From a virus, in the UHGV virus genome UHGV-0300374: a stretch of DNA of 64,000 nucleotides. One strand, given 5' to 3'. Below, piece after piece: positions 3,128 to 21,778 of the stretch; position 1 is the first letter of the stretch; every line of letters starts with the position of its first letter. Made by a program: the position numbers and the translations under genes. The notes under the pieces were generated by a model that was not told the origin of the DNA, ran no database searches, and was given only the letters and a program-made list of their open reading frames with translations.

Positions 3128-3526
3128 TTACTGAGAAGTTAGGCTTTTGAAAATGCTTGCTTCGAAAAAACTTCCGAAGTTTGCCTCCAGCGCAAATGCT
3201 AAGTAATCAATAAACTCACCGTAGTTTGCTTGGAAGTACGTATCAATATTAAGTGGGAAGTCGTCAACAGTTGCCCCTTGAAATAATAAGGTAGCCATCT
3301 CTTCAAGGTTAATTTCTTCAATTCTGTCAAAACAAGCTTCAACAAGTTCTTTAAATGGAACCATTGGAGCTTCTTTCTTACCCTTGTCAGTCAGACTTGA
3401 CAGCATCTGTGCAAAAGTTGGAACAATAATTTTACCCAACTTCATAGACATCTTAATACCATCTCTTGCCCCAAGCAGAACGATATTTACTTTCTTACCA
3501 TTAATTACTCTAAATTCTGTTTTCAT
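3128..3526 (-). CDS. putative tail assembly chaperone
   Basis: 132 aa, between tube-like gene and tape measure; position only. Confidence 0.3.
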   Translation of the reverse strand: MKTEFRVINGKKVNIVLLGARDGIKMSMKLGKIIVPTFAQMLSSLTDKGKKEAPMVPFKELVEACFDRIEEINLEEMATLLFQGATVDDFPLNIDTYFQANYGEFIDYLAFALEANFGSFFEASIFKSLTSQ

Positions 3527-3554
3527 TGTGATTCCTTAATACTTTTAAAAGAAA

Positions 3555-3586
3555 CAAAAAAGGGGAAGACCTTTTAAAGTCTCCCC
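3555..3586 (-). terminator. intrinsic terminator-like hairpin after tail tube gene
   Basis: Imperfect GC-rich stem (ggggaagac / gtctcccc) followed on the minus strand by a U-run (plus a-run 3556-3561). Confidence 0.4.
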
Positions 3587-3599
3587 CTTATAGGATTTA

Positions 3600-4046
3600 T
3601 TAAACACTTGACGCTGGAATTGTAGAAGTGTAGTCTAGCTTCTCACAACCAAAAATCCAAGTTTTAGAGTTCTGGTCACGACCAAGTTCAATCTGTGGTA
3701 ATTCCTGCAACCAAGCATTAATACCAGTTGCCAGAACAGAGCCTGATGGGTCGTAGATTACGAAGTTAGAAGAGATATCTTCTTCAAGTTCCATATTGTC
3801 TTGTTTAGCTTGAATTGCAGAAAGCATCTGGTTAGAGAGAGAAGTCTGCATTAACTCAATCTCAATAGTACCTGTCTTGTCTGCATTTCTCGTCAGAGCA
3901 ACTTGACCACCTGCACCAACAACTGGTGTCACAAGTGGTGATGTTCTCTGTAGACGCAAGAATGAGTCTGGAGCAAAGCCTTCAATGGCAATACCATTCC
4001 AGCTACATACAACGTCTTTAGGGGAATATTGCTGATACATAGCCAT
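3600..4046 (-). CDS. putative tail tube protein
   Basis: 148 aa directly downstream of sheath-sized ORF and followed by terminator; position/size only. Confidence 0.4.
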   Translation of the reverse strand: MAMYQQYSPKDVVCSWNGIAIEGFAPDSFLRLQRTSPLVTPVVGAGGQVALTRNADKTGTIEIELMQTSLSNQMLSAIQAKQDNMELEEDISSNFVIYDPSGSVLATGINAWLQELPQIELGRDQNSKTWIFGCEKLDYTSTIPASSV

Positions 4047-4061
4047 TCCAATTTACCTCTA

Positions 4062-5414
4062 TTATTCGTAAGCCACTGTACCTTTCAAGTCAACATCCAA
4101 GATAGCACCTGCTAAGATACCTGCGAAGGTAACGTCTTTCAGGATACGTGCTTTCTTGTCTGCTAAAGCAACTTGAGAGGCTTTAGGAACATTAACTGTG
4201 TAAGATGACAGGAAGTTTCTGTTGACTGCTCTTTGCAGAGAGGTTTCAATGACTTGACGAATACGGGTAATACCAGTATCATCATAAGTAATCTTACCAC
4301 CCTTCTGATTAATTAGCAAGTCTCTCAGAGAAGTTTTCAGGTCTGATTCTAACCAGTCAACACCACGGACGATATCAATCCATTCCCCACCAGAAGTAAT
4401 CCCTCTACGAACCACTGGAACACCACCATCAAGGTCAATAAAGTTACAGTGACGTGCATCTAAAGCTGACTTCTGAATACTTGTCAGAGGTCTCTTATTA
4501 GCTGGCTGTAGAGAAGCAGCTACACCAGTTAGCTGAGCATTACCCCAAGCAATTGAACCTGCATCATATGGAGCACCATAAGCAATGTATGCCATCTCTG
4601 GATAATCTTCTGCCGCTGTGTGATGCCACAAGCAAACTGTGCGAGTATACATACTCTTAGCAAGCTGTGCTGGAACATCATTTGCACTGTTTAATTCTGT
4701 ACCTTGTAGGGCTGTTACATCAGAGTTAGCTGTAAAGAAAATCTTCTTACGCGCTTGAATCTCAGAAGCCATTGCTAAGACAAACTGTTGAGTTCTATCT
4801 TCTGCTGCAATGAAATACCAGTCAGTAGAATAAGCTTCAATAGCTGCCAGAGCAGTTGATGCTGTATCGGCAGTTGTACTTGCAATATACACAGTCTGTG
4901 CTGTAGTTGTTACTTTCACAAAGTCATTATCACCCGCTTTGGTAATAACCATTGTGGCAGAACCGTTGCTACCAGTAACATTAACTGAGACTTTATCTTT
5001 AATTGATTGGTCAGCTTCAATCTGTGTTTTAAACTGTTGTAATACATTCTCGGCAGTATCTTCACCTTGTGAGGTGTACTGGAATGGTTGTGACATTCCC
5101 CCACTGACAGCTACAGTAATTGAGTAGTCTGTACTTTCGGTAACGGCATCAGGAATTGATACAGTGTACTGCATAGCACGTCTACCAATATAAAGCTGAG
5201 TTACTTTAGGAGTCTGACTCCAAAGTTGTTTAGCAGCCTTATATGCAGCAGAGTTTTCATCGAAATCTTCAGCAACTTCAGTTAAGGAAGTGTAACCACG
5301 GACTCTTTCTTCAAAGTTATCTGTTGAAGCTAAAAATAGTGGCAGCCCAAAACCTTCTCTTGTAGTTCCTGCGGTGTTCAATGTAATATCTACATTAACA
5401 ATTGGATTCCACAT
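4062..5414 (-). CDS. putative tail sheath protein
   Basis: 450 aa, sheath-tube-chaperone-TMP order typical of contractile tails; position/size only. Confidence 0.45.
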   Translation of the reverse strand: MWNPIVNVDITLNTAGTTREGFGLPLFLASTDNFEERVRGYTSLTEVAEDFDENSAAYKAAKQLWSQTPKVTQLYIGRRAMQYTVSIPDAVTESTDYSITVAVSGGMSQPFQYTSQGEDTAENVLQQFKTQIEADQSIKDKVSVNVTGSNGSATMVITKAGDNDFVKVTTTAQTVYIASTTADTASTALAAIEAYSTDWYFIAAEDRTQQFVLAMASEIQARKKIFFTANSDVTALQGTELNSANDVPAQLAKSMYTRTVCLWHHTAAEDYPEMAYIAYGAPYDAGSIAWGNAQLTGVAASLQPANKRPLTSIQKSALDARHCNFIDLDGGVPVVRRGITSGGEWIDIVRGVDWLESDLKTSLRDLLINQKGGKITYDDTGITRIRQVIETSLQRAVNRNFLSSYTVNVPKASQVALADKKARILKDVTFAGILAGAILDVDLKGTVAYE

Positions 5415-6390: not shown

Positions 6391-6869
6391 TTCTTAATAC
6401 CCTTCTTAGTAGAAATTTTATAAGCAAGGTTATCTCTTAAGTCACCTGTCTCAACAAGAGGTGCATTAAAGCCTTTTTTCTTGACTGTGGAAGGTGCGTT
6501 AGGAGGGAGGATAGCAGAATTACCAAAACCCCTTTTAATTGCCTTTTGAGTATTCTTTGCAAATGCTTCTAAGGTATTTGAAGGGTCTGTGTTGAGACTG
6601 CTAAGTTGCTTATATAGATTCTTCTTAGTCTGCTCTAACAAGGTCTGTTTGTTTAGCATCATAGTGATTTCAAACAACCTACGATATACTTTACCAGAAG
6701 CTGAAGGAACCCCAATAACTTCTTGTAAATACATTAAAGCAGGATAAGAAAAACCAGAGCTATGTTGACCTTGTTCTTGAAAATACCCAACTTGAGCATT
6801 AGCCGTTTGCAAGTTCTTCATAGCCCCGACTAATTTTGCTCTCGCGGGGTGAATAACCCTTTTAACCAT
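6387..6869 (-). CDS. hypothetical virion protein (head-tail joining candidate)
   Basis: ORF track; 4-nt overlap with upstream gene. Confidence 0.3.
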   Translation of the reverse strand: MVKRVIHPARAKLVGAMKNLQTANAQVGYFQEQGQHSSGFSYPALMYLQEVIGVPSASGKVYRRLFEITMMLNKQTLLEQTKKNLYKQLSSLNTDPSNTLEAFAKNTQKAIKRGFGNSAILPPNAPSTVKKKGFNAPLVETGDLRDNLAYKISTKKGIKK

Positions 6870-14582: not shown

Positions 14583-14658
14583 AAAATAACTTGGAGAATC
14601 CGAAGGGACTCGAACCCTTATAAACCTGTTTTGCAGACAGGCACATAGCCATTTCTGT
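14583..14658 (-). tRNA. tRNA-Cys (GCA)
   Basis: Acceptor GAATCCG/CGGATTC, T-arm GGGTTCGAGTCCC, anticodon loop CTGCAAA, CCA encoded. Confidence 0.7.
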
Positions 14659-14662
14659 CACG

Positions 14663-14755
14663 GATTCAAATTGGAGGAAGATACCAGACTTGAACTGGTA
14701 CACCGATTTCTCAGCTACTGGCAGTTTAGCAAACTGCTCCCTTACCTTTTAGGGT
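14663..14755 (-). tRNA. tRNA-Ser (GCU), long variable arm
   Basis: Acceptor GGAAGAT/ATCTTCC, anticodon stem GCAGT/ACTGC with loop TTGCTAA, about 93 nt. Confidence 0.6.
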
Positions 14756-14766
14756 TAATCTTCCAT

Positions 14767-15501
14767 TTATTTCTGTAATGCGCTCTTCATTTCTGGTGTT
14801 GCAATAGTGTCAATCACACCAGTTTTACAGGCATCATCAAACCAGTCTGGTAAGATACCTGCTAAGAACCCATTGATATTCGTTCTAAGGTACTCTGCAA
14901 TAAGGGCAGCTTCTTCTTCAATCATCTGCACAACTTCATCTGCATAAGCTGTAATCTTTGAAATACCTTCATTAATCTTACTAACAGCCTGATTAGCTAA
15001 ATCAGAAACAGTATCAAGACCCTCATCAATAGCGTCTTGTAAGTCACTTAACACACCATTAACACTATCTAGTGTACTGTTAATCATGTCAATAGCTTTT
15101 TGACCATACTCTGTAGCAACACCCATAATACCACTGAATGGTGTACAACCAACTTGTTCTCCTGCTGCACCCATAACATTGGAGTATCCCTTTGCTACCT
15201 GCATACGTGATGAAAACTCATCAATAGACTTTTGACCGTAGTCTGTCAGGGTCTTAGTAGTTGCTGTAGTGCTTGTAAGGCTTGTTGTAAAGCTGTTTAG
15301 AAGGACTGTTGTAAGTCCAGCAGCAACAAGCTTATCTTTTACTGTAGGGTCTGATACAGAACTAATAGAGCTTACAAGTGATGTAGAGGCAGCTACGGTT
15401 CCACCGAGAACTGCTGCACCAGTAATAAGGGGGTTAGAAAACCCTTTACCAGTTTTTAAGAGATTAAAAATCTCCTTACCTTGTTCTGTCATCTCTTTCA
15501 T
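14767..15501 (-). CDS. hypothetical protein (Ser/Thr-rich N-terminal half)
   Basis: ORF-track start 15564 overlaps tRNA-Phe; internal ATG at 15501 has RBS aaaggtg and avoids the tRNA. Confidence 0.45.
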   Translation of the reverse strand: MKEMTEQGKEIFNLLKTGKGFSNPLITGAAVLGGTVAASTSLVSSISSVSDPTVKDKLVAAGLTTVLLNSFTTSLTSTTATTKTLTDYGQKSIDEFSSRMQVAKGYSNVMGAAGEQVGCTPFSGIMGVATEYGQKAIDMINSTLDSVNGVLSDLQDAIDEGLDTVSDLANQAVSKINEGISKITAYADEVVQMIEEEAALIAEYLRTNINGFLAGILPDWFDDACKTGVIDTIATPEMKSALQK

Positions 15502-15517
15502 TAAGCACCTTTGAAAT

Positions 15518-15594
15518 TGGTAGTCCAGTGGGATTTGAACCCTCTTCTCATGTTTTTCAGACACGCGCTTTAACCATATAAGCTACTTGGACTA
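15518..15594 (-). tRNA. tRNA-Phe (GAA)
   Basis: Anticodon stem CGTGT/ACATG with loop CTGAAAA; T-loop TTCAAAT; acceptor TAGTCCA/TGGACTA. Confidence 0.6.
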
Positions 15595-15599
15595 TAAAT

Positions 15600-15675
15600 T
15601 GGGGTGACCTACGGGATTTGAACCCGTATAGACCATGTTCACAGCATGGGTCATTACCATTTATGATAAGGCCAC
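15600..15675 (-). tRNA. tRNA-His (GUG)
   Basis: Anticodon stem CCATG/CATGG loop CTGTGAA; discriminator C; T-arm ACGGGTTCAAATCCCGT. Confidence 0.7.
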
Positions 15676-15706
15676 ATTTAAGGACTCTCGTAAGAATCCT
15701 TAGAAG

Positions 15707-15782
15707 TGGCAGCGGCATAAGGATTTGAACCTTAATAAGACAGCTTCAGAGACTGCTGCATTGCCAGTTATGCTATACCGCT
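15707..15782 (-). tRNA. tRNA-Gln (CUG)
   Basis: Anticodon loop CTCTGAA; T-arm TAAGGTTCAAATCCTTA; acceptor AGCGGTA/TGCCGCT. Confidence 0.6.
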
Positions 15783-15787
15783 AAATT

Positions 15788-15866
15788 TGGTACTCCATAT
15801 CGGATTCGAACCGATACATAACACAGATTTTAAGTCTGGCCTCTCTGCCAATTGGAGTAATGGAGC
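15788..15866 (-). tRNA. tRNA with Leu anticodon UAA (class-I-like short variable arm)
   Basis: Anticodon loop CTTAAAA, discriminator A, T-arm ATCGGTTCGAATCCGAT; variable region only about 7 nt. Confidence 0.5.
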
Positions 15867-15868
15867 AT

Positions 15869-15944
15869 TGGCGGGGGATGTTGGAATTGAACCAACTTCT
15901 TCGATTTCAAAGACCGAGGTTTTAACCTTGTAAACTAATCCCCT
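15869..15944 (-). tRNA. tRNA-Gln (UUG)
   Basis: Anticodon stem TCGGT/ATCGA loop CTTTGAA; T-arm GTTGGTTCAATTCCAAC; 1:72 mismatch. Confidence 0.6.
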
Positions 15945-15952
15945 TTAAATCT

Positions 15953-16510
15953 TTACTTTCTCAGTGGATGAATAAAGAATGCCAACATAACTCTTTCCCT
16001 TGAGAATGCTCTTTCTTCTGGGACAACACTTTTTAGTTTCCATCCAATATAAATTCTCCAGTAAAATTGTTTACCAAAGATTTTAATTGATGGGATAAAA
16101 GCGAATAATCCCCAAGCATTCCTGTTCCACATTAGGAGATAACCAGTCTGATTATCTTCAGGGTCAGAACTTACGTTGATATTACCTTTCCACTTAGTAA
16201 CATCTTTTACATCTCTTCCTAATACATGGTAAGAGAAGTTATAAGCTTTGTTTCTCCAGAGCCATCCGACTCTTTGCATGTAGACACCTAGTTTACCAAT
16301 CCATCTAATATTAGCCCATCTTTTAACGTGACCTTCATCACCATCAATTGGGTTGTCATATGTCTCCATCCATCTGAACCCGAAAGGTAAGTGTCCTTTC
16401 TTCTCACTGTAGAATGGAACTACAAAAGGTGCTAAGATAACTGCTAGTATTGCTGCAAGTGGTTCTAGCAAAGCTAAGAAAATCCATGAAGCATATTTTA
16501 AGTATCTCAT
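15953..16510 (-). CDS. hypothetical membrane protein embedded in tRNA array
   Basis: 185 aa; hydrophobic N-terminus WIFLALLEPLAAILAVILAPFVV. Confidence 0.45.
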   Translation of the reverse strand: MRYLKYASWIFLALLEPLAAILAVILAPFVVPFYSEKKGHLPFGFRWMETYDNPIDGDEGHVKRWANIRWIGKLGVYMQRVGWLWRNKAYNFSYHVLGRDVKDVTKWKGNINVSSDPEDNQTGYLLMWNRNAWGLFAFIPSIKIFGKQFYWRIYIGWKLKSVVPEERAFSRERVMLAFFIHPLRK

Positions 16511-16749
16511 TGTCTAACCCTCGTAAGGAGGTAAGCATTATTACTTGTTTCTGAGCTTTCTGGTAACATTGTCTCAAAATTGACACTTTTAAGTTGTCTT
16601 CCACCAAAGCAATGACCAATAAATCTTTCTACTTTTATTGGGTCGCATTCCCATCCGACTTTTAAGAAAATGTGGGTATCTATAGTGGGAACCCTTACAA
16701 ACTCAATACTATTGGGATTTTCATGTTCAACGACGATTAATGTTTGCAT
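16507..16749 (-). CDS. hypothetical protein embedded in tRNA array
   Basis: ORF track, 80 aa, 4-nt overlap with downstream ORF. Confidence 0.4.
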   Translation of the reverse strand: MQTLIVVEHENPNSIEFVRVPTIDTHIFLKVGWECDPIKVERFIGHCFGGRQLKSVNFETMLPESSETSNNAYLLTRVRQ

Positions 16750-16767
16750 AAATTCCTCTTGCTTATC

Positions 16768-16843
16768 TGGCGCAGGATAAGGGATTCGAACCCCTATTAA
16801 CAGTTTCGTAGACTGTTGCTCTATCCATTTGAACTAATCCTGC
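16768..16843 (-). tRNA. tRNA-Arg (ACG)
   Basis: Anticodon stem ACAGT/ACTGT loop CTACGAA; acceptor GCAGGAT/ATCCTGC; T-loop TTCGAAT. Confidence 0.7.
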
Positions 16844-16848
16844 AAAAT

Positions 16849-16926
16849 TGGTGTTCCAAGACGGATTCGAACCGTCACTAATACAAGGTTTGAGCTTGCA
16901 TCCTCTGCCAATTGGGATACTGGAAC
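16849..16926 (-). tRNA. tRNA with Leu anticodon CAA (class-I-like short variable arm)
   Basis: Anticodon loop CTCAAAC, discriminator A, T-arm GACGGTTCGAATCCGTC. Confidence 0.5.
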
Positions 16927-16927
16927 A

Positions 16928-17002
16928 TGGTACTCACTAAAGGACTTGAACCTTTTTCTTCATCTTGTAAGGGTGGTGTTTTACCATATAAACTAAGCGA
17001 GT
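16928..17002 (-). tRNA. tRNA-Val (UAC) candidate, weak anticodon stem
   Basis: Acceptor ACTCGCT/AGTGAGT, D-arm GTTT..AAAC, T-arm AAAGGTTCAAGTCCTTT, loop CTTACAA but only 3 of 5 anticodon-stem pairs. Confidence 0.4.
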
Positions 17003-17098
17003 GTGAAAGAGGTCTGAAGTTGTGCCGCTAACTCAACTCCGTGGAATTTGTTACGGTCTTCAGTTGACTCAAAGCGGTCTTTCACTTGACCTCTGAAT

Positions 17099-17174
17099 TG
17101 GTGCTCCCACAAGGATTCGAACCCTGATAAGTTGCTTACAAGGCAACCGTAATAGCCAATTATACGATAGGAGC
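17099..17174 (-). tRNA. tRNA-Thr (UGU)
   Basis: Anticodon stem GTTGC/GCAAC loop CTTGTAA; T-arm CAGGGTTCGAATCCTTG. Confidence 0.7.
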
Positions 17175-17181
17175 ATTAATT

Positions 17182-17256
17182 TGGAGCATCCAGAGGGAAT
17201 CGAACCCTCAACCTCAGTTTGGAAGACTGTAATTTTCCCGTTTAAACTATGGATGC
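17182..17256 (-). tRNA. tRNA-Gly (UCC)
   Basis: Anticodon loop CTTCCAA; T-arm GAGGGTTCGATTCCCTC; acceptor GCATCCA/TGGATGC. Confidence 0.65.
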
Positions 17257-17262
17257 ACTAAT

Positions 17263-17338
17263 TGGTGGAGTCACTGAGAATTGAACTCAGTTCCCAAGTT
17301 TGCAAAACTCGAATTTTAACCATATAAACTATGACCCC
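17263..17338 (-). tRNA. tRNA-Ala (UGC)
   Basis: Acceptor GGGGTCA with G3:U70 wobble; anticodon loop TTTGCAA; T-arm CTGAGTTCAATTCTCAG. Confidence 0.7.
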
Positions 17339-17344
17339 ATTGTT

Positions 17345-17420
17345 TGGTACAGGTGGAGGGAATTGAACCCATCGTCTTACTGATTAAGAGTCAGCCGCAT
17401 AACCATTTTGCTACACCTGC
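17345..17420 (-). tRNA. tRNA-Lys (CUU), copy 1
   Basis: Anticodon stem GCTGA/TCAGT loop CTCTTAA; acceptor GCAGGTG/CACCTGT; T-stem weak. Confidence 0.55.
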
Positions 17421-17427
17421 ATTAATT

Positions 17428-17505
17428 TGGTAGGAGACAAGGGATTCGAACCCTCAAACACCAACTTCTAAGGATGGTAGGTTTACCAATTACCGTCAAT
17501 CTCCC
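17428..17505 (-). tRNA. tRNA with Leu anticodon UAG (class-I-like short variable arm)
   Basis: Anticodon loop CTTAGAA, discriminator A, acceptor GGGAGAT/GTCTCCT with wobbles. Confidence 0.45.
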
Positions 17506-17761
17506 ATTAAATCTTTTTAGAGAACTTCTAAGAACCTAAGCAACAAGGTTCCACAACAAGCTGTAATAACCTTAGAAGCCCTCTAAAAAGACCTAAAAAG
17601 GTCTTTGCATAGTCTTGTTTAATCCGGTGACTAGAACCTTTGGAGAGCTTGATATTATCTCTTCTCCGTGACACCTACTAGGTGCTTTATCAGTGTGTAC
17701 GACAATACACGAGGGATACCAAAGCAACATCCGAATGAAGCTTGGCTTTAAAATCTTATTA

Positions 17762-17851
17762 GGCGGTAAGTAAAGGAGTCGAACCCTCACCGTATCTCTA
17801 CAGTGGCAACTGTTTTCAAGACAGTTTGGCTACCATTAGCCGCTACCTACC
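17762..17851 (-). tRNA. tRNA-Ser (UGA), long variable arm
   Basis: Acceptor GGTAGGT/ACTTACC, anticodon stem ACTGT/ACAGT loop CTTGAAA, about 90 nt, CCA not fully encoded. Confidence 0.55.
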
Positions 17852-17864
17852 CCTAATAAGACTT

Positions 17865-17947
17865 TGGCATGGGACGGAGGAGTTGAACCCCTTTGAAACG
17901 GTGTTGGAAGCCGTTGCTCATGCCTTAGAGTCTTAACATCGTCCCAT
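17865..17947 (-). tRNA. tRNA-Trp (CCA) candidate with extended D region
   Basis: Perfect acceptor ATGGGAC/GTCCCAT, T-loop TTCAACT, hairpin AACGG-CTTCCAACA-CCGTT carrying CCA; D region about 7 nt longer than canonical. Confidence 0.4.
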
Positions 17948-18089
17948 ACTATAATTCGAAGCTTACCGTATTATCTCAACACTGTAAAGCCCCTTCTCAG
18001 ATTATTTACATGTTCTGGAAAACATGAGATACAGACCACCTCCCTACAGGAAGACCCGCTTAGGTCGTCTAAGTAATCTGCTAACTAAT

Positions 18090-18166
18090 TGGCACACCCT
18101 ACAGGATTCGAACCTGTAACTAACGATTTAGAAGACCGTTGCTCTATCCAATTGAACTAAGGGTGC
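18090..18166 (-). tRNA. tRNA-Arg (UCU)
   Basis: Anticodon stem ACGGT/ATCGT loop CTTCTAA; D-arm GTTCAATTGGATAGAGC; T-arm ACAGGTTCGAATCCTGT. Confidence 0.7.
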
Positions 18167-18413
18167 ATTAATCTTTAAAGACTCTCTTAGAAAGCCCTTA
18201 AAGATGCCCACCTTATTAATCATACCGTGGGCTAGTACGCCAAATTCTTTGATGAGGGATTGGAAGACCTCACTGGTGTTTAGCCTATCAAGCTACTGCC
18301 AGAAAAACATTGTCGTTTGCATTTATTTTAAATTTGCAAAATAGACGCTACGCAACGAAAACTAAGGTTACTATAAAGTAGTCACATCTCAATGTCAACA
18401 ACTTTATTGAAAT

Positions 18414-18489
18414 TGGTACTGGTAGGTGGAATCGAACCACCAATGTTCCCTTATCAGGGGAGTGTTATAACCTTCTTAACTATACCAGC
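18414..18489 (-). tRNA. tRNA-Ile (GAU)
   Basis: Anticodon loop CTGATAA; T-arm GGTGGTTCGATTCCACC; acceptor GCTGGTA/TACCAGT. Confidence 0.65.
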
Positions 18490-18490
18490 T

Positions 18491-18567
18491 TGGAGGTTCA
18501 GATGGGAATCGAACCCACATTCATAGGGCTTATGAGACCCTTGCATTACCTTATCTGCGACTGAACC
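18491..18567 (-). tRNA. tRNA-Met (CAU)
   Basis: Anticodon stem AGGGT/GCCCT loop CTCATAA; acceptor GGTTCAG/CTGAACC. Confidence 0.65.
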
Positions 18568-18571
18568 ATAT

Positions 18572-18647
18572 TGGTAGAAGTGGAGGGAATTGAACCCATC
18601 GTCTTACTGATTAAGAGTCAGCCGCATAACCATTCTGCTACACTTCC
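18572..18647 (-). tRNA. tRNA-Lys (CUU), copy 2
   Basis: Anticodon/T-arm identical to copy at 17345-17420 but acceptor GGAAGTG/CACTTCT. Confidence 0.55.
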
Positions 18648-18653
18648 ATTAAA

Positions 18654-18793
18654 TTATCTTTGTAGATAAGCTACCCAGACTTGCTTAAGGTCTGTAGCGA
18701 TGTGCCTTTTTGGGTTTAAATCTAGAATTTACCCTTTCACCCTTTGTGGTCGCATACTCACAGGTAAGCTTAATAACTTATCTACAAAGATAA
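18654..18793 (-). ncRNA. structured spacer bounded by perfect 17-bp inverted repeat (candidate small RNA/processing element)
   Basis: ttatctttgtagataag at 18654-18670 and its exact reverse complement at 18777-18793, 106 nt apart; no tRNA fold, no credible ORF. Confidence 0.35.
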
Positions 18794-18829
18794 TTACCAG
18801 ACCGTTGTTTATCATCTTAAGTGCTACCA

Positions 18830-18878
18830 TTACACCAACTCGACATCTGCCGAGTGAAGGAATCGAACCTTCGCCTTT
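18830..18878 (-). ncRNA. tRNA-like minihelix/tRNA fragment (T-arm plus closed acceptor hairpin)
   Basis: GAAGGTTCGATTCCTTC T-arm followed by ACTCGGC-AGAT-GTCGAGT hairpin then a D-arm-like GGTGTAATGGTAGCAC; no matching 5' acceptor strand upstream. Confidence 0.35.
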
Positions 18879-18907
18879 TCTTTACCGAGAAATAGATTGT
18901 TTAAGTT

Positions 18908-18935
18908 TTGCTGTAAACGGTCTTCTGTAAATTTG
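18908..18935 (-). repeat. conserved 28-nt tRNA-spacer motif, copy 1
   Basis: ttgctgtaaacggtcttctgtaaatttg; identical copy at 19390 and variants at 18996 and 19566. Confidence 0.5.
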
Positions 18936-18995
18936 TTGAGCCAGACCAAGTTTTAAATTTTTCAAAATTAAATTGGCTTGAAATTTTAAGTAACT

Positions 18996-19015
18996 TGCTG
19001 TATTTGGTCTTCTGC
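18996..19015 (-). repeat. conserved tRNA-spacer motif, copy 2 (variant)
   Basis: ttgctgtatttggtcttctg. Confidence 0.4.
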
Positions 19016-19075
19016 TCCTTTAAAGGATACTCGTAAGAACCCTTTAAGGGAGGGGCTAAATAGCCCTCTCAAAAT

Positions 19076-19152
19076 TGGCGGTTACGAAGGGATTTGAACC
19101 CTCATCATCTCCCGTGACAGGGGAGTATTTTAACCAAATTAAACTACATAAC
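19076..19152 (-). tRNA. tRNA-Asp (GUC)
   Basis: Perfect anticodon stem CTCCC/GGGAG loop CTGTCAC; acceptor GGTTATG/CGTAACC. Confidence 0.7.
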
Positions 19153-19157
19153 CTTTA

Positions 19158-19246
19158 TTGGTGTGCCGTGTAGGAGTCGAACCTACCGAGTCTCAATGAC
19201 AAGGGATTTACAGTCCCCACCGCTACCATCTACGGGATAACGACAC
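19158..19246 (-). tRNA. tRNA-Tyr (GUA), long variable arm
   Basis: Anticodon stem GGGGA/TCCCT loop CTGTAAA; 89 nt; T-arm GTAGGTTCGACTCCTAC. Confidence 0.65.
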
Positions 19247-19255
19247 ATTTAAATT

Positions 19256-19332
19256 TGGCGGTTAGTCAGGGATTCGAACCCTGTGCCATTCGCTTAACAG
19301 GCGACCGCACATACCTTATGTGCTTCCTAACC
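19256..19332 (-). tRNA. tRNA-Asn (GUU)
   Basis: Anticodon loop CTGTTAA; D-arm GCACA..TGTGC; T-arm CAGGGTTCGAATCCCTG. Confidence 0.6.
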
Positions 19333-19389
19333 ATGTTTAGCATTACCAGACCGTATATTTCAATTTTTCCGCTAAAAATTTAATAAATA

Positions 19390-19418
19390 TTGCTGTAAAC
19401 GGTCTTCTGTAAATTTGG
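19390..19418 (-). repeat. conserved 28-nt tRNA-spacer motif, copy 3
   Basis: ttgctgtaaacggtcttctgtaaatttgg abutting the 3' end of the tRNA at 19416. Confidence 0.5.
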
Positions 19419-19492
19419 AGGCGGGTGCAGGAGTCGAACCTGCCGATACCATGCTAATGAGACATGTGAGACGCCCTTTCTCTATACCCGCA
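19416..19492 (-). tRNA. tRNA with CAU anticodon (second Met, initiator or Ile-lysidine type)
   Basis: Anticodon stem CATGT/GCATG loop CTCATTA; T-arm GCAGGTTCGACTCCTGC; 1:72 mismatch. Confidence 0.5.
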
Positions 19493-19565
19493 ATTCTTAA
19501 TGACCAGACCAAATATCTTCTTTGTCCGATTAACTTTCAGATGAGTAGATTAAGTTTGCTGTAAT

Positions 19566-19595
19566 TGGTCTTCTGTCAAAACTGGCGTTCCAGAA
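19566..19595 (-). repeat. conserved tRNA-spacer motif, copy 4 (variant)
   Basis: ttgctgtaattggtcttctgtcaaaactgg; minus-strand reading contains TTGACA. Confidence 0.45.
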
Positions 19596-19670
19596 GGGAT
19601 TTGAACCCTCAAATATCCACTTTGAAAGAGTGGTGACTTTACCATTTTGTCTACTGGAACATTAATTTGG
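19593..19670 (-). tRNA. tRNA-Glu (UUC)
   Basis: Perfect anticodon stem CCACT/AGTGG loop CTTTCAA; acceptor GTTCCAG/CTGGAAC. Confidence 0.7.
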
Positions 19671-19677
19671 TCTCTGT

Positions 19678-19754
19678 TGGAGGACTTGAACCTCCGGCCT
19701 TACCGCCCCAAACGGAACGCTCTACCAAGCTGAGCTAAACAGAGATAAACTTTT
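19678..19754 (-). tRNA. tRNA-Pro (UGG)
   Basis: Anticodon loop TTTGGGG with G37; D-arm GCTCAGCTTGGTAGAGC; T-arm GGAGGTTCAAGTCCTCC. Confidence 0.65.
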
Positions 19755-19909
19755 CAAACTCTATGTAACCACTTTAACATTATTTTTTAGTGGTTGTCAA
19801 GAACTTTTTTAAAATATTTTTCAGTATCTTAGAAAAGCTCTCGTTTCGTTTCTATGTAGAACATATTAAAGGGTATCAAACACATTGTCAATACCCTTTT
19901 TAAAACTTT

Positions 19910-21325
19910 TTACCAGATATAACGGTCAATCATTACTGCTTTGAGCATTACACTGATTGGGTCAAACTTCTCACCACCAAGCAGAGCTTTTAAAGTGGCT
20001 GGAGAGAACCCTGATACCATTGCTACACCATTATCCTTAACAGATACTTCGCAAGTACCATTACGGTTTGCTAAGTACCAGAATACCAGTTGTGGCATCT
20101 CATATCCAGCTTTTTTGTACTTACTCTGAATTGCTTCAAAGTTTGTACGACCGTTAGCTCCATCAACCTGATTGAACTCCATATCGGAGAAGATGATAAG
20201 CTTACTTGGCATATCTTTCTGAGTCAAGTTGTTTCTTTTACCTGTTTCAAGAATGCGGTCAAAAGCTGCTTGTAAGTTAGTTGAGCCATATTCAACGTGT
20301 CGCATCACCTGACGATGACGGTTTCGTAAATCACCACTCAGTTCGATGAAGTGAGGGTTTGTTGAATAAACCATTAACTCATTCTTAAAGCAACCTGTAT
20401 TGCGTTCTGCTACATACAAGGCAAGTGATACACCAATATCCAGAGCAGTAATGGAGCCAAAATTCACCCAAGACATCGAACTTGATACATCAGACATACA
20501 CAAGATGTTTTCACCTTCTGCCATCCAGTTTGGTAGTGCTTTCCACTGCTCATTAGCAACATCTGCATTACCATACTTGACAGATTTAATCACATCGTAT
20601 GGGTAAACAGCACCAGCGTTAATCTTAGTCTCACCTTTTGATAAGGACTCGATGTAAGCTTTGTAACGTTCTCCATCCTTACGGTTAAACAGTTTTTGGT
20701 AACGTGCAGCAGCAAGTGAAGGAACCTTACTGTAGTCAATCTTGCCAAACTCATTAGCAGAGATTTTTTGCTCAACTGTATCAGATAGTGCAGACAACAG
20801 TGTGCGGTACTCTTTCTCATTCAAGTTGGCAAACTTGCAGAAACGTTTTACAAACTGCTTATGACGTGGTTTGACTCGTGGTAGCCACTTGGCTGCCAAA
20901 CCTGCTGTTGCAGGGTCTAGTAATGCTGCTTCTAAATGTTTGAAGGCATCTGTCTCGAAACGAGTACCTACGAAGATTTTGAAGTCATCAAAACGACCAA
21001 GTTCTGCAATCTTATCCATAATGCGAAGAACCTGTGTAGGCTCTAAAACTTTATCTTCAATTGCTTGAAGCAAAACAGTTCTGAAGGCTTTACGCTCACC
21101 CATACCTTCTCGTACATCTCGCATATGCAGTAAAATACGAACTGCAACATCAACATCCTCATGCAAAGCTTTGTAGAACAGGTCTGGTAAGATTTCTACG
21201 TTGCTACGGCTTGAACCAGCAGCTTTGTAAAAGTCTACAAGAGCAGACATTGATGAAGTATGGTTTACAGCACCATTTTCAGTTCGACCTGCATGAAGGT
21301 GCGCATGTTTAAATAATTCGCTCAT
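19910..21325 (-). CDS. von Willebrand factor A (MIDAS) domain protein, possibly TROVE/Ro60-like (DUF2828-type)
   Basis: 471 aa; motif ENILCMSDVSSSMSW matches vWA MIDAS DxSxS after a hydrophobic strand; alpha-helical N-terminal part; immediately upstream of tRNA array. Confidence 0.5.
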   Translation of the reverse strand: MSELFKHAHLHAGRTENGAVNHTSSMSALVDFYKAAGSSRSNVEILPDLFYKALHEDVDVAVRILLHMRDVREGMGERKAFRTVLLQAIEDKVLEPTQVLRIMDKIAELGRFDDFKIFVGTRFETDAFKHLEAALLDPATAGLAAKWLPRVKPRHKQFVKRFCKFANLNEKEYRTLLSALSDTVEQKISANEFGKIDYSKVPSLAAARYQKLFNRKDGERYKAYIESLSKGETKINAGAVYPYDVIKSVKYGNADVANEQWKALPNWMAEGENILCMSDVSSSMSWVNFGSITALDIGVSLALYVAERNTGCFKNELMVYSTNPHFIELSGDLRNRHRQVMRHVEYGSTNLQAAFDRILETGKRNNLTQKDMPSKLIIFSDMEFNQVDGANGRTNFEAIQSKYKKAGYEMPQLVFWYLANRNGTCEVSVKDNGVAMVSGFSPATLKALLGGEKFDPISVMLKAVMIDRYIW

Positions 21326-21406
21326 ATTTTACTCTCTTCTCTCATTTGTTGTTTGATGTGACAGACTTTAGAGCAACTTTGAAGAGTCTGTCAACACCTT
21401 TTAAAA

Positions 21407-21778
21407 TTATTTTTTAAGCGTTGCTACAGCAGAGAACGTTGGTTTGTTATCTGTCTGAGACTGACCGCCGTTATCAGGGGTCTTCTTAGTGTCTGCTGCA
21501 ATTGCTTTCATCTCACCTGCTGAGTGAGTCATGATAGTTTTACCGACCTCAATCATGCTCTTGATGGTTACGTCGTCTGTGTTTAACCCGAACTCTGCAA
21601 GCTTAGCAGCGTCCCTTGTAACAATCGCTTCAAACAACTTTGCAGCAAACTCAGCAGAATTATCAATGGTCAGTTGAGCTTTTACAAGTGAGCTTTTGTT
21701 ACGAGAGCCTTTTGGTCTTCCAGATGGGTTTCCAGATTGGCCTTTTTTAAACTGGCCTTTGTTTGTTCTGTTTTTCAT
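21407..21778 (-). CDS. small basic protein with N-terminal GNPxGRPKG motif
   Basis: 123 aa; N-terminus KGQFKKGQSGNPSGRPKGSRNKS, a motif recalled from phage DUF5681-type proteins. Confidence 0.4.
   Translation of the reverse strand: MKNRTNKGQFKKGQSGNPSGRPKGSRNKSSLVKAQLTIDNSAEFAAKLFEAIVTRDAAKLAEFGLNTDDVTIKSMIEVGKTIMTHSAGEMKAIAADTKKTPDNGGQSQTDNKPTFSAVATLKK

Follow-up and report, generated by a model that had tools for sequence, protein, structure and literature searches.

The window analysed here is a 64,000-nt (64-kb) stretch of virus genome UHGV-0300374, a Felixounavirus with 97% identity over the gene region to LF110P2 and KhF1. A 471-aa protein gene heads its tRNA array, and on the strength of a predicted model we regard the product as structurally related to Ro60, though distantly, and as a member of a separate sequence family. 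The Ro60-like assignment is already known from database annotation and a 2024 preprint; the novel part of the finding is a set of four modules in the tRNA spacers (M1–M4), which from their sequences and folds are candidate partner RNAs of a previously undescribed family. On balance, and with some reserve, we lean towards reading the gene as encoding a distant phage-type Ro60 relative and M1–M4 as its Y-RNA-like partners in a modular adaptor particle. A pair of this kind, a Ro60-like protein with a noncoding RNA, had been proposed in a sequence-only reading of this DNA, and it gains support from the linkage of such RNAs to DUF2828 genes and from the YrlA topology of M4. The main features are as follows (bit scores and rough E-values refer to R1, a covariance model described below).

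19910–21325, minus strand: Ro60-like protein gene, DUF2828 helical-repeat ring plus DUF7788 vWA/MIDAS domain (471 aa, ATG start)
14592–19744, minus strand: tRNA array, 26 tRNAs (ARAGORN), with the modules embedded in it
19499–19578, minus strand: M1, short handle RNA in the tRNA-Glu/tRNA-Met spacer (43.9 bits, E 3.7e-7)
19341–19412, minus strand: M2, short handle RNA in the tRNA-Met/tRNA-Asn spacer (49.6 bits, E 2e-8)
18936–19017, minus strand: M3, short handle RNA in the tRNA-Asp/tRNA-Lys spacer (44.6 bits, E 2.6e-7)
18794–18930, minus strand: M4, long handle RNA with a permuted tRNA-like cargo in the tRNA-Asp/tRNA-Lys spacer (from its fold and RNAalifold)

Pfam recognises two domains in the protein, each above the curated cut-off (PF11443, DUF2828, 1.4e-29; PF25043, DUF7788, 1.7e-43), and PHROG assigns residues 1–471 to phrog_850, 'RNA-binding protein' (1e-183). 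The open reading frame (ORF) translation carries ENILCMSDVSSSMSW at residues 272–286, and in an alignment of 45 homologs the residues of the MIDAS (metal ion-dependent adhesion site; DxSxS...T...D), namely D279, S281, S283, T349 and D381, do not vary, and neither does an RD-R-G-GER motif (residues 69–78). In the AlphaFold2 model (predicted local distance difference test 89, predicted template modelling score 0.88) the N-terminal ~265 aa are all-helical and the C-terminal domain is alpha/beta. The sequence-only reading, which had placed a MIDAS in the C-terminal half behind a helical N-terminal half and had named a DUF2828-type family, was right on both counts. Comparison of the predicted model with PDB structures by Foldseek returned Ro60/TROVE structures as the top 11 matches (E 1e-8 to 9e-7; from Thermus phage phiLo, Xenopus, human, and Deinococcus), in alignments spanning 507–571 columns; vWA domains ranked below them, at E 2.7e-3 or worse. 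The protein is thus predicted to form a ring of helical repeats with a vWA domain behind it, a fold that superposes on the solved structures of Ro60.

At the sequence level the relationship is far less visible. The 471-aa protein has no match at E ≤ 1 to Pfam TROVE (PF05731) or vWA_Ro60 (PF25045), a faint match to the latter (E 0.029) being confined to the Aeromonas homolog, and its identity to Ro60 is 10–16%. Queried singly, the sequence had no match among PDB chains, and its profile, run against PDB sequences, reached Ro60 at E 0.5–0.9 and over the MIDAS segment only, so that sequence alone leaves the fold unsettled; in the MIDAS alignment the profile pairs DVSGSM with DVSASM of Ro60. The earlier assignment to the TROVE/Ro60 type therefore stands for the fold, with Ro60 aligned over 507–571 columns, and falls for the sequence family.

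Homologs number more than 3000 proteins in a large collection and occur in 710 of 50,697 phage records, in phages of Escherichia, Salmonella, Mycobacterium, Vibrio, Listeria, Staphylococcus, Campylobacter, Enterococcus, Bacillus, and others; many of them bear the SEA-PHAGES annotators' label 'Ro-like RNA binding protein'. The ortholog in phage Bas63, gp130 (bas63_0130), is 97% identical to the window protein and has the same neighbours. High structural similarity of gp130 to Ro60 and its location upstream of tRNAs have been described in the PhageMaP preprint, which suspected a pairing with Y RNAs and supposed these to be among the annotated tRNA genes, without identifying any (PMC11482910); the modules reported here sit in unannotated spacers instead. 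Without gp130, Bas63 forms tiny plaques on a host with the Ppl defence; T7 grows on such a host again when given gp130 alone, whether from a plasmid or as an insertion in its own genome (PMC11482910). No RNA partners of the DUF2828 family are named in the literature searched. A paper on retron Eco2 was set aside as circumstantial only.

The gene heads the array at its 5' end, as the sequence-only reading had stated, and shares its strand: tRNA-Pro (19668–19744), the first tRNA, begins 165 nt past the stop codon of the gene, and all 26 tRNAs lie on the minus strand. Modules M1–M4 span 18794–19578 on the gene strand, 330–1120 nt downstream of the gene. The box CAGAAGACC-N3-TACAGCAA, followed 55–122 nt further on by GGTCTGG, is found at four sites on the tRNA strand against 0.07 expected; a site at 47196 (plus strand) has the box motif without CAGCAA and no R1 match. 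All four modules share one fold, in which an outer 4-bp stem, a 3-nt AGA bulge and a 7–8-bp helix AGACCNN/NNGGUCU are combined with the single-stranded UACAGCAA and an interior that varies, while the 3' side leaves one G unpaired. M1 combines the outer stem UGAC/GUCA and bulge AGA with helix AGACCAA/UUGGUCU and UUACAGCAA; the outer stem and helix are UUAC/GUAA and AGACCGU/ACGGUCU in M2, and GAGC/GCUC and AGACCAA/UUGGUCU in M3, so that the outer stems are compensatory among paralogs.

The interior of M4 consists, in this order, of a small V hairpin, a T arm (GAAGG-UUCGAUU-CCUUC, 18856–18872) that aligns to positions 43–63 of the Rfam tRNA model, a closed 'AS' hairpin (18838–18855), and a D arm (GGUG-UAAUGGUAG-CACU, 18820–18836). 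In both the minimum free energy (MFE) fold and RNAalifold, M4 thus has the topology of YrlA, a terminal helix around V, T arm, closed acceptor-like hairpin, and D arm; the order of T arm, closed hairpin, and D arm defines YrlA-type Y RNAs (PMC4201824). RNAalifold recovered all six helices from six Ounavirinae M4 variants, with three covarying pairs in the closed hairpin, which has three different sequences among the orthologs, all of them pairing. An Rfam scan of the array and gene (9 kb, E ≤ 1) returned tRNAs and sub-threshold noise (MIR473, tmRNA fragments, and Plastid-ycf2 antisense to tRNAs), Y_RNA and YrlA being absent, and Rfam 15 matched nothing at the modules scanned. The YrlA gathering threshold (69 bits) is not reached by M4; at canonical phage loci the YrlA model does work, with 30–52 bits. 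The YrlA motif GNCGAAN0-1G is missing from the modules, which have UWCAGCAA in its place. With respect to location, the genes for YrlA RNAs and for Ro60 share a strand and lie no more than 4 kb apart (PMC4201824), and M1–M4 stand in the same relation to the Ro60-like gene. As regards the Y-RNA-like folds for which the sequence-only reading had proposed to search the spacers, M4 has the YrlA topology and no Rfam YrlA score. The tRNA-free structured spacers that it had pointed out do exist; only one of the five listed (18654–18935) holds a member of the handle family (M4), the other four contain structured elements without the handle, and M1–M3 lie in spacers that it had left out (19493–19582, 19333–19415, and 18936–19075).

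All four modules are present in UAB_Phi87 and Bas63, the M2 ortholog of UAB_Phi87 having a compensatory outer stem, UUGC/GCAA; in the Bas63 record (MZ501086) they map to about 82065–82912. In Citrobacter phage Moogle (86% protein identity) the modules show G-U-compatible helix changes, and the closed hairpin of M4 is wholly different in sequence yet pairing. Yersinia phage P778 (53% identity) has three modules with rewritten helices (GGACUGU/ACAGUCC, GGAUUC/GAAUCC, and GGACUC/GAGUCC), in which the 3-nt bulge, CAGCAA, and an unpaired base on the 3' side are preserved; one of the three contains a T arm. Structure-based scanners were used because a strict regular expression for the Felixounavirus boxes missed Moogle M1 and M4 and all Yersinia modules owing to compensatory changes, and was dropped. 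At Moogle (locus L002, 8382–9130) ARAGORN calls a permuted 'tmRNA*' across several tRNAs, an artefact of the permuted tRNA-like domain of M4.

Scanner A, a structure search for a T arm, a perfect hairpin, and a D arm, gave 29 matches on the gene strand of 88 loci against 3 on the opposite strand and 4 in shuffled sequence. Its matches at L050–L052 were rejected as tandem tRNAs with similar acceptor stems, recognised by ARAGORN. Permuted tRNA-like elements adjoin the DUF2828 genes of mycobacteriophage Lolly9 and of the uncultured phages L025, L031, L044, and L067, each within a helix whose 5' strand precedes (U)ACAGCAA or a sequence close to it. Scored with the YrlA model of Rfam, the Lolly9 cargo aligns to the core at 37.7 bits, under the threshold of 69. 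Scanner B accepted any 7-bp helix around C[AC]GCAA and had a high background (208 matches on the gene strand, 89 on the opposite strand, and about 49 in shuffled sequence), so that it served only for harvesting candidates and the statistics rest on the covariance model. The candidates harvested include a tandem array of 8 copies, the last of them 13 nt before the gene of Aeromonas phage 4_4572, three modules before the gene of Listeria phage LMSP-25, three after that of Lolly9, and a single module right past the stop codon in about a dozen uncultured phages.

The covariance model R1 of the handle (68 positions, 7 pairs) was trained on alignment A2 of 37 diverse short modules, in which the helix pairs in 97.7% of cells against 30–44% when the partner is slid; being tuned to short modules, R1 scored long-cargo modules weakly. 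The A2 covariation count was set aside as primary evidence, and three applications of R1 are considered non-circular. In the whole window, both strands included, R1 found M1–M3 (E 2e-8 to 4e-7) and, weakly, M4, with no other match. In 70 distant DUF2828 loci (636 kb, both strands) it gave 58 matches at E ≤ 0.01 in 42 loci. The gene strand holds all of them (58/58); 47 lie no more than 500 nt from the gene, and the gene itself contains none. Of these matches, 28 were outside the training set, and 21 of the matched loci contributed nothing to the model. The third application concerns four cultured phages not used for R1, namely Staphylococcus phage 6ec, Campylobacter phage F370, Bacillus phage FADO, and Enterococcus phage VRE9_2, where copies stand beside the gene. 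The consensus of 65 distinct matches is A-G-R-N4-U-U-W-C-A-G-C-A-A ... N4-Y-C-U-G, that is, a helix with 5' strand AGR-N4-5, the single-stranded UWCAGCAA, a variable cargo, and the 3' strand N4-5-YCU with an unpaired G. The second pair, G:C, and the motif core C18, G20, C21, and A22 are invariant in these matches, and the trailing G is present in 98%; none of these positions was demanded by the scanner. The handle RNA family is therefore linked to DUF2828 genes in phages of three bacterial phyla. A promoter was rejected as an explanation of the motif, since its partner strand is 47–140 nt away, variable, and compensatorily changed, and the motif is common to phages of hosts with different promoters; a terminator was rejected as well, since the G+C-rich stem and U tract of one are missing.

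Controls were provided by four phage loci that encode canonical Ro60, Streptomyces Gilson, Mycobacterium Catera, Gordonia Forza, and Microbacterium Pumpernickel. The Gilson protein matches TROVE (1.5e-36) and vWA_Ro60 (3.4e-56), and each locus has an Rfam YrlA match on the gene strand (Gilson 30.8, Catera 36.1, Forza 52.1, and Pumpernickel 30.0 bits), whereas R1 found no match at the four loci even at E ≤ 10 and the YrlA flanks contain no CAGCAA. In these loci the handle type tracks the protein type. Nor is the handle a general feature of phage tRNA arrays, since Forza and Gilson have large arrays (20 and 17 tRNAs, respectively) near the canonical Ro60 gene without it. In Forza (L093) the TROVE Ro60 gene lies directly upstream of the 20-tRNA array, which includes a tmRNA, and a YrlA-type RNA occupies the tRNA spacer 6730–6829; this is the layout of the window with the other protein and RNA type.

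Phage pairs of Ro60 and Y-like RNAs are so far established for canonical TROVE proteins only, as in mycobacteriophages, CcrColossus, and phage G (PMC4201824). Bacterial Ro60 (Rsr) with YrlA/Yrn1 (PMC4201824; RF02553) and the window system have in common the ring-plus-vWA fold, RNAs a few kb away on the gene strand, and a modular RNA design with a conserved terminal helix and motif, a variable module, and often several paralogs; each genome has one or more RNAs with a tRNA-like domain in permuted order, and RtcB is nearby in some genomes. The window protein differs in belonging to Pfam DUF2828/DUF7788 and not to TROVE/vWA_Ro60, and its RNAs in having a handle of AGR-helix, UWCAGCAA, and YCU-G in place of GNCGAAN0-1G, in the lack of an RF02553 score for M4, in occurring up to 8 in tandem, and in cargos that include normal-order tRNA bodies and non-tRNA hairpins. 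Ro60 of Thermus phage phiLo binds phage Y-like RNAs and host PNPase (PMC12135203). That protein is a recognisable TROVE protein whose RNAs, Yrl1 and Yrl2, have a CGAA motif (PMC12135203; PDB 9KOP, 9L5Y), and its binding and PNPase recruitment have been demonstrated, whereas the window system is known here from sequence and predicted fold. The TROVE 'Ro-like RNA binding proteins' of actinophages (cluster C mycobacteriophages, Streptomyces BE phages, and Gordonia Forza) likewise have the gene in or heading a tRNA array and a YrlA-type RNA in a spacer on the same strand; their protein family by sequence and their RNA handle are different, and R1 has no match there. In the tRNA cluster of phage T4, stable non-tRNA RNAs, species 1 and 2, are co-transcribed and co-processed with the tRNAs; T4 is not known to have a Ro60-like protein associated with them.

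The cargo within this one handle varies: it can be a small A/U hairpin, a tRNA-like domain in permuted order, a tRNA body in normal order, or one of several unrelated hairpins. Normal-order bodies (D arm, anticodon-like arm, and T arm) were found at L067:6328–6428 and L070:6191–6315, where the handle helix replaces the acceptor stem. Y RNAs follow the design principle of a constant end for docking the protein, joined to a module that can be exchanged. Two unrelated uncultured phages (L026:2102–2196 and L031:3707–3805) have a common cargo containing CCUUUCCGGAGGGGAAAGC, which suggests a further conserved cargo class. RtcB is encoded 1.3 kb downstream of the DUF2828 gene in Listeria phage LMSP-25 and Rnl2 4 kb downstream in an Aeromonas phage, a neighbourhood that fits a role in RNA repair or surveillance. 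In Vibrio phages of the ValKK3/KVP40 type (L004, at about 4957–5013, L023, and L024) the DUF2828 gene is closely preceded by the handle 5' strand with UUACAGCAA, and the pairing strand falls just within the gene, so that the helix would enclose the Shine-Dalgarno sequence and AUG; judged from sequence, this layout, typical of autoregulation by an RNA-binding protein, may represent an autoregulatory site.

Two promoter-like sites, both matches to the consensus, stand between the gene and tRNA-Pro.

19891–19863, minus strand: promoter-like site TTGACA-17-TAATAT
19800–19771, minus strand: promoter-like site TTGACA-18-TAAAGT

The number of such sites in the region is not above that in shuffles. 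As placed, the two would drive the first part of the array including M1–M5 (M5, a further structured RNA, is described below), and because they precede the array and no intervening terminator was seen between them and the modules, the modules would be part of the tRNA precursor. M1 and M2 lie 3–9 nt from each of their flanking tRNAs, so tRNA 5' and 3' processing would release them. We infer that M1–M4 are transcribed with the tRNAs from the promoters at 19891 and 19800, excised by tRNA-processing enzymes, and bound directly by the protein, for which the common handle would be the docking site while the cargo varies. The tRNA-like elbow of M4 (T loop/D loop) may engage enzymes that recognise tRNA shape, and the particle may act as an adaptor joining the ring protein to tRNA-recognising or RNA-degrading or RNA-repairing host factors, or as a decoy for them; such action during infection would help the phage against host defences. 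The particle is indirectly supported by the strict linkage of handle and gene, by the handle tracking the protein type, and by the KVP40-type Vibrio layout.

Several observations weigh against a particle of this kind. The Ppl activity of gp130 implies that no cognate RNAs are needed for it, T7 having none; either host RNAs substitute, or the activity is RNA-independent and the RNAs serve another task. The handle is unlike the Ro-binding motifs of known Y RNAs (GGUCCGA and GNCGAAN0-1G), M4 has no match to RF02553 at E ≤ 10 on 181 nt, and the short modules attain no more than modest z-scores in MFE folding (−1.2 to −2.1). The A2 covariation count is partly circular because the sequences were picked for a perfect helix, R1 E-values are rough because calibration was shortened, and about 20–28 of the 70 distant loci have no confident handle within 4 kb. 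A literature search, the returns of which were almost all irrelevant, found no transcriptomic report on handle RNAs. Many loci, moreover, have a single module 22–60 nt past the stop or 7–60 nt before the start. Such placement, together with the sufficiency of gp130 against Ppl in T7 and from a plasmid and the Vibrio helix around the Shine-Dalgarno sequence and AUG, favours a different account, in which the Ro60-fold protein is an anti-defence factor working alone or with host RNAs or proteins, e.g., inhibiting Ppl through its MIDAS face, and the handles are cis-acting sites for mRNA autoregulation or loading or processing marks on the tRNA precursor, not stable trans-acting RNAs. We regard this as unlikely, though deserving serious attention: the window modules stand 330–1120 nt past the stop, behind two promoter-like sites and at least two tRNAs and tightly flanked by tRNAs, tandem arrays of up to 8 copies and cargos that are complete tRNA-like domains are hard to explain as operators, and even as cis-acting sites the handles would imply a binding site of the protein.

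It is highly improbable that the modules are features of tRNA arrays (spacer hairpins, processing signals, or decayed tRNA genes) with no functional tie to the protein and that adjacency to the gene is a by-product of a common 'RNA region' location. M1–M5 do lie in tRNA spacers, M4 has tRNA-derived arms, unrelated hairpins fill other spacers of the array, and 15 of 60 distant DUF2828 loci (L023–L082) have tRNAs within 4 kb, all 64 tRNA calls being on the gene strand. The handle nevertheless stands beside the gene in many loci without any tRNA within 4 kb (e.g., L027, L029, L032–L035, and L037–L043), is missing from the Forza and Gilson arrays beside canonical Ro60, and, according to R1, does not occur in the rest of the window array (14592–18650). 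The lack of Pfam TROVE and vWA_Ro60 matches, the MIDAS-only alignments of the PDB profile search, and the low identity to Ro60 would also be expected of a mere vWA/MIDAS protein with an unrelated helical N-terminus and a superficial likeness to Ro60, a possibility that we find hardly credible beside the Foldseek alignments with Ro60.

A protein with Y-RNA-like partners would have consequences beyond this phage. Ro60/Y-RNA particles are a classic RNA-surveillance system and still poorly understood, and a family invisible to TROVE profiles is predicted to obey the same logic of a protein plus modular RNAs with its own recognition code. More tentatively, and with doubt prevailing, DUF2828 and the 'ACAGCAA-handle' RNAs may constitute a second, unrecognised lineage of the Ro60/Y-RNA type, carried by no fewer than 710 sequenced phages with hosts among the Proteobacteria, Firmicutes, and Actinobacteria and outnumbering canonical Ro60, in which a universal handle presents interchangeable cargos, such as tRNA mimics, tRNA bodies, and other hairpins, that recruit or decoy host RNA enzymes and defence nucleases. 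Pfam describes DUF2828 as occurring in eukaryotes too; if the lineage is real, similar partner RNAs might exist there. For the window protein type, which has a known phenotype in that it defeats Ppl and boosts T7, concrete candidate RNA partners are now named, and the defined, mutable handle opens direct experiments in Bas63 (pull-downs, handle mutants, and module deletions). The covariance model can be used on hundreds of phage genomes, where these RNAs are unannotated or hidden under spurious small ORFs.

Two further features flank the gene and the modules.

21365–21394, minus strand: promoter-like site TTGACA-18-TAAAGT upstream of the gene (consensus match only)
18652–18793, minus strand: M5, structured 140-nt RNA that immediately follows M4; its closing stem has 24 bp, and it contains the mini-hairpin CAGAC-CUUAAGCAA-GUCUG

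M5 is stable (folding free energy, dG, −48.6; z −5.1), 8 of its 38 pairs are compensatory between the Felixounavirus and Moogle-type lineages, and the loop of its mini-hairpin resembles the handle motif; whether it is part of the handle-RNA system is uncertain. Small ORFs on the plus strand at 18700–18930, annotated publicly as 'hypothetical proteins', overlie M3–M5; the corresponding opposite-strand coding sequences are bas63_0137 over M3/M4 and bas63_0138 over M5, with the equivalents Phi87_08/09 in UAB_Phi87. These small ORFs are probably spurious calls on RNA genes. Directly upstream of the Ro60-like gene, at 21407–21778 (minus strand), a DUF5681 protein (2.1e-14) is encoded; the gene pair is kept in UAB_Phi87, Moogle, Bas63, and, by position, Yersinia P778, and not in distant DUF2828 loci.

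Other structured elements of the array, all on the minus strand, include a stable hairpin at 17003–17098 (dG −30, z −3.7) that contains GAAGACCGUAACAAAUU, resembling a decayed handle box, and has no R1 match. A long, almost perfect hairpin just upstream of tRNA-Leu (17506–17610; dG −37.6, z −5.7) attracts the weak Rfam mislabel MIR473; ahead of it stands a small hairpin, AAAGACC/GGUCUUU, that has a run of U. A cloverleaf-like tRNA relic at 17852–17950, with a 10-bp acceptor stem, a 9-nt 'anticodon' loop, and 3' GCCA, is called by neither ARAGORN nor the Rfam tRNA model. Two small hairpins lie ahead of M3 (19021–19075), and the UUACGAG loop of one of them recurs in Moogle and, in a variant form, in Yersinia phage P778. 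In Listeria phage LMSP-25 (L007), the tRNA region upstream of the DUF2828 gene contains a ROOL RNA match (3428–3979; 88.5 bits, E 1.8e-16), just short of the threshold of 99.1, and a drum RNA (941–1039; 50.2 bits), above threshold.

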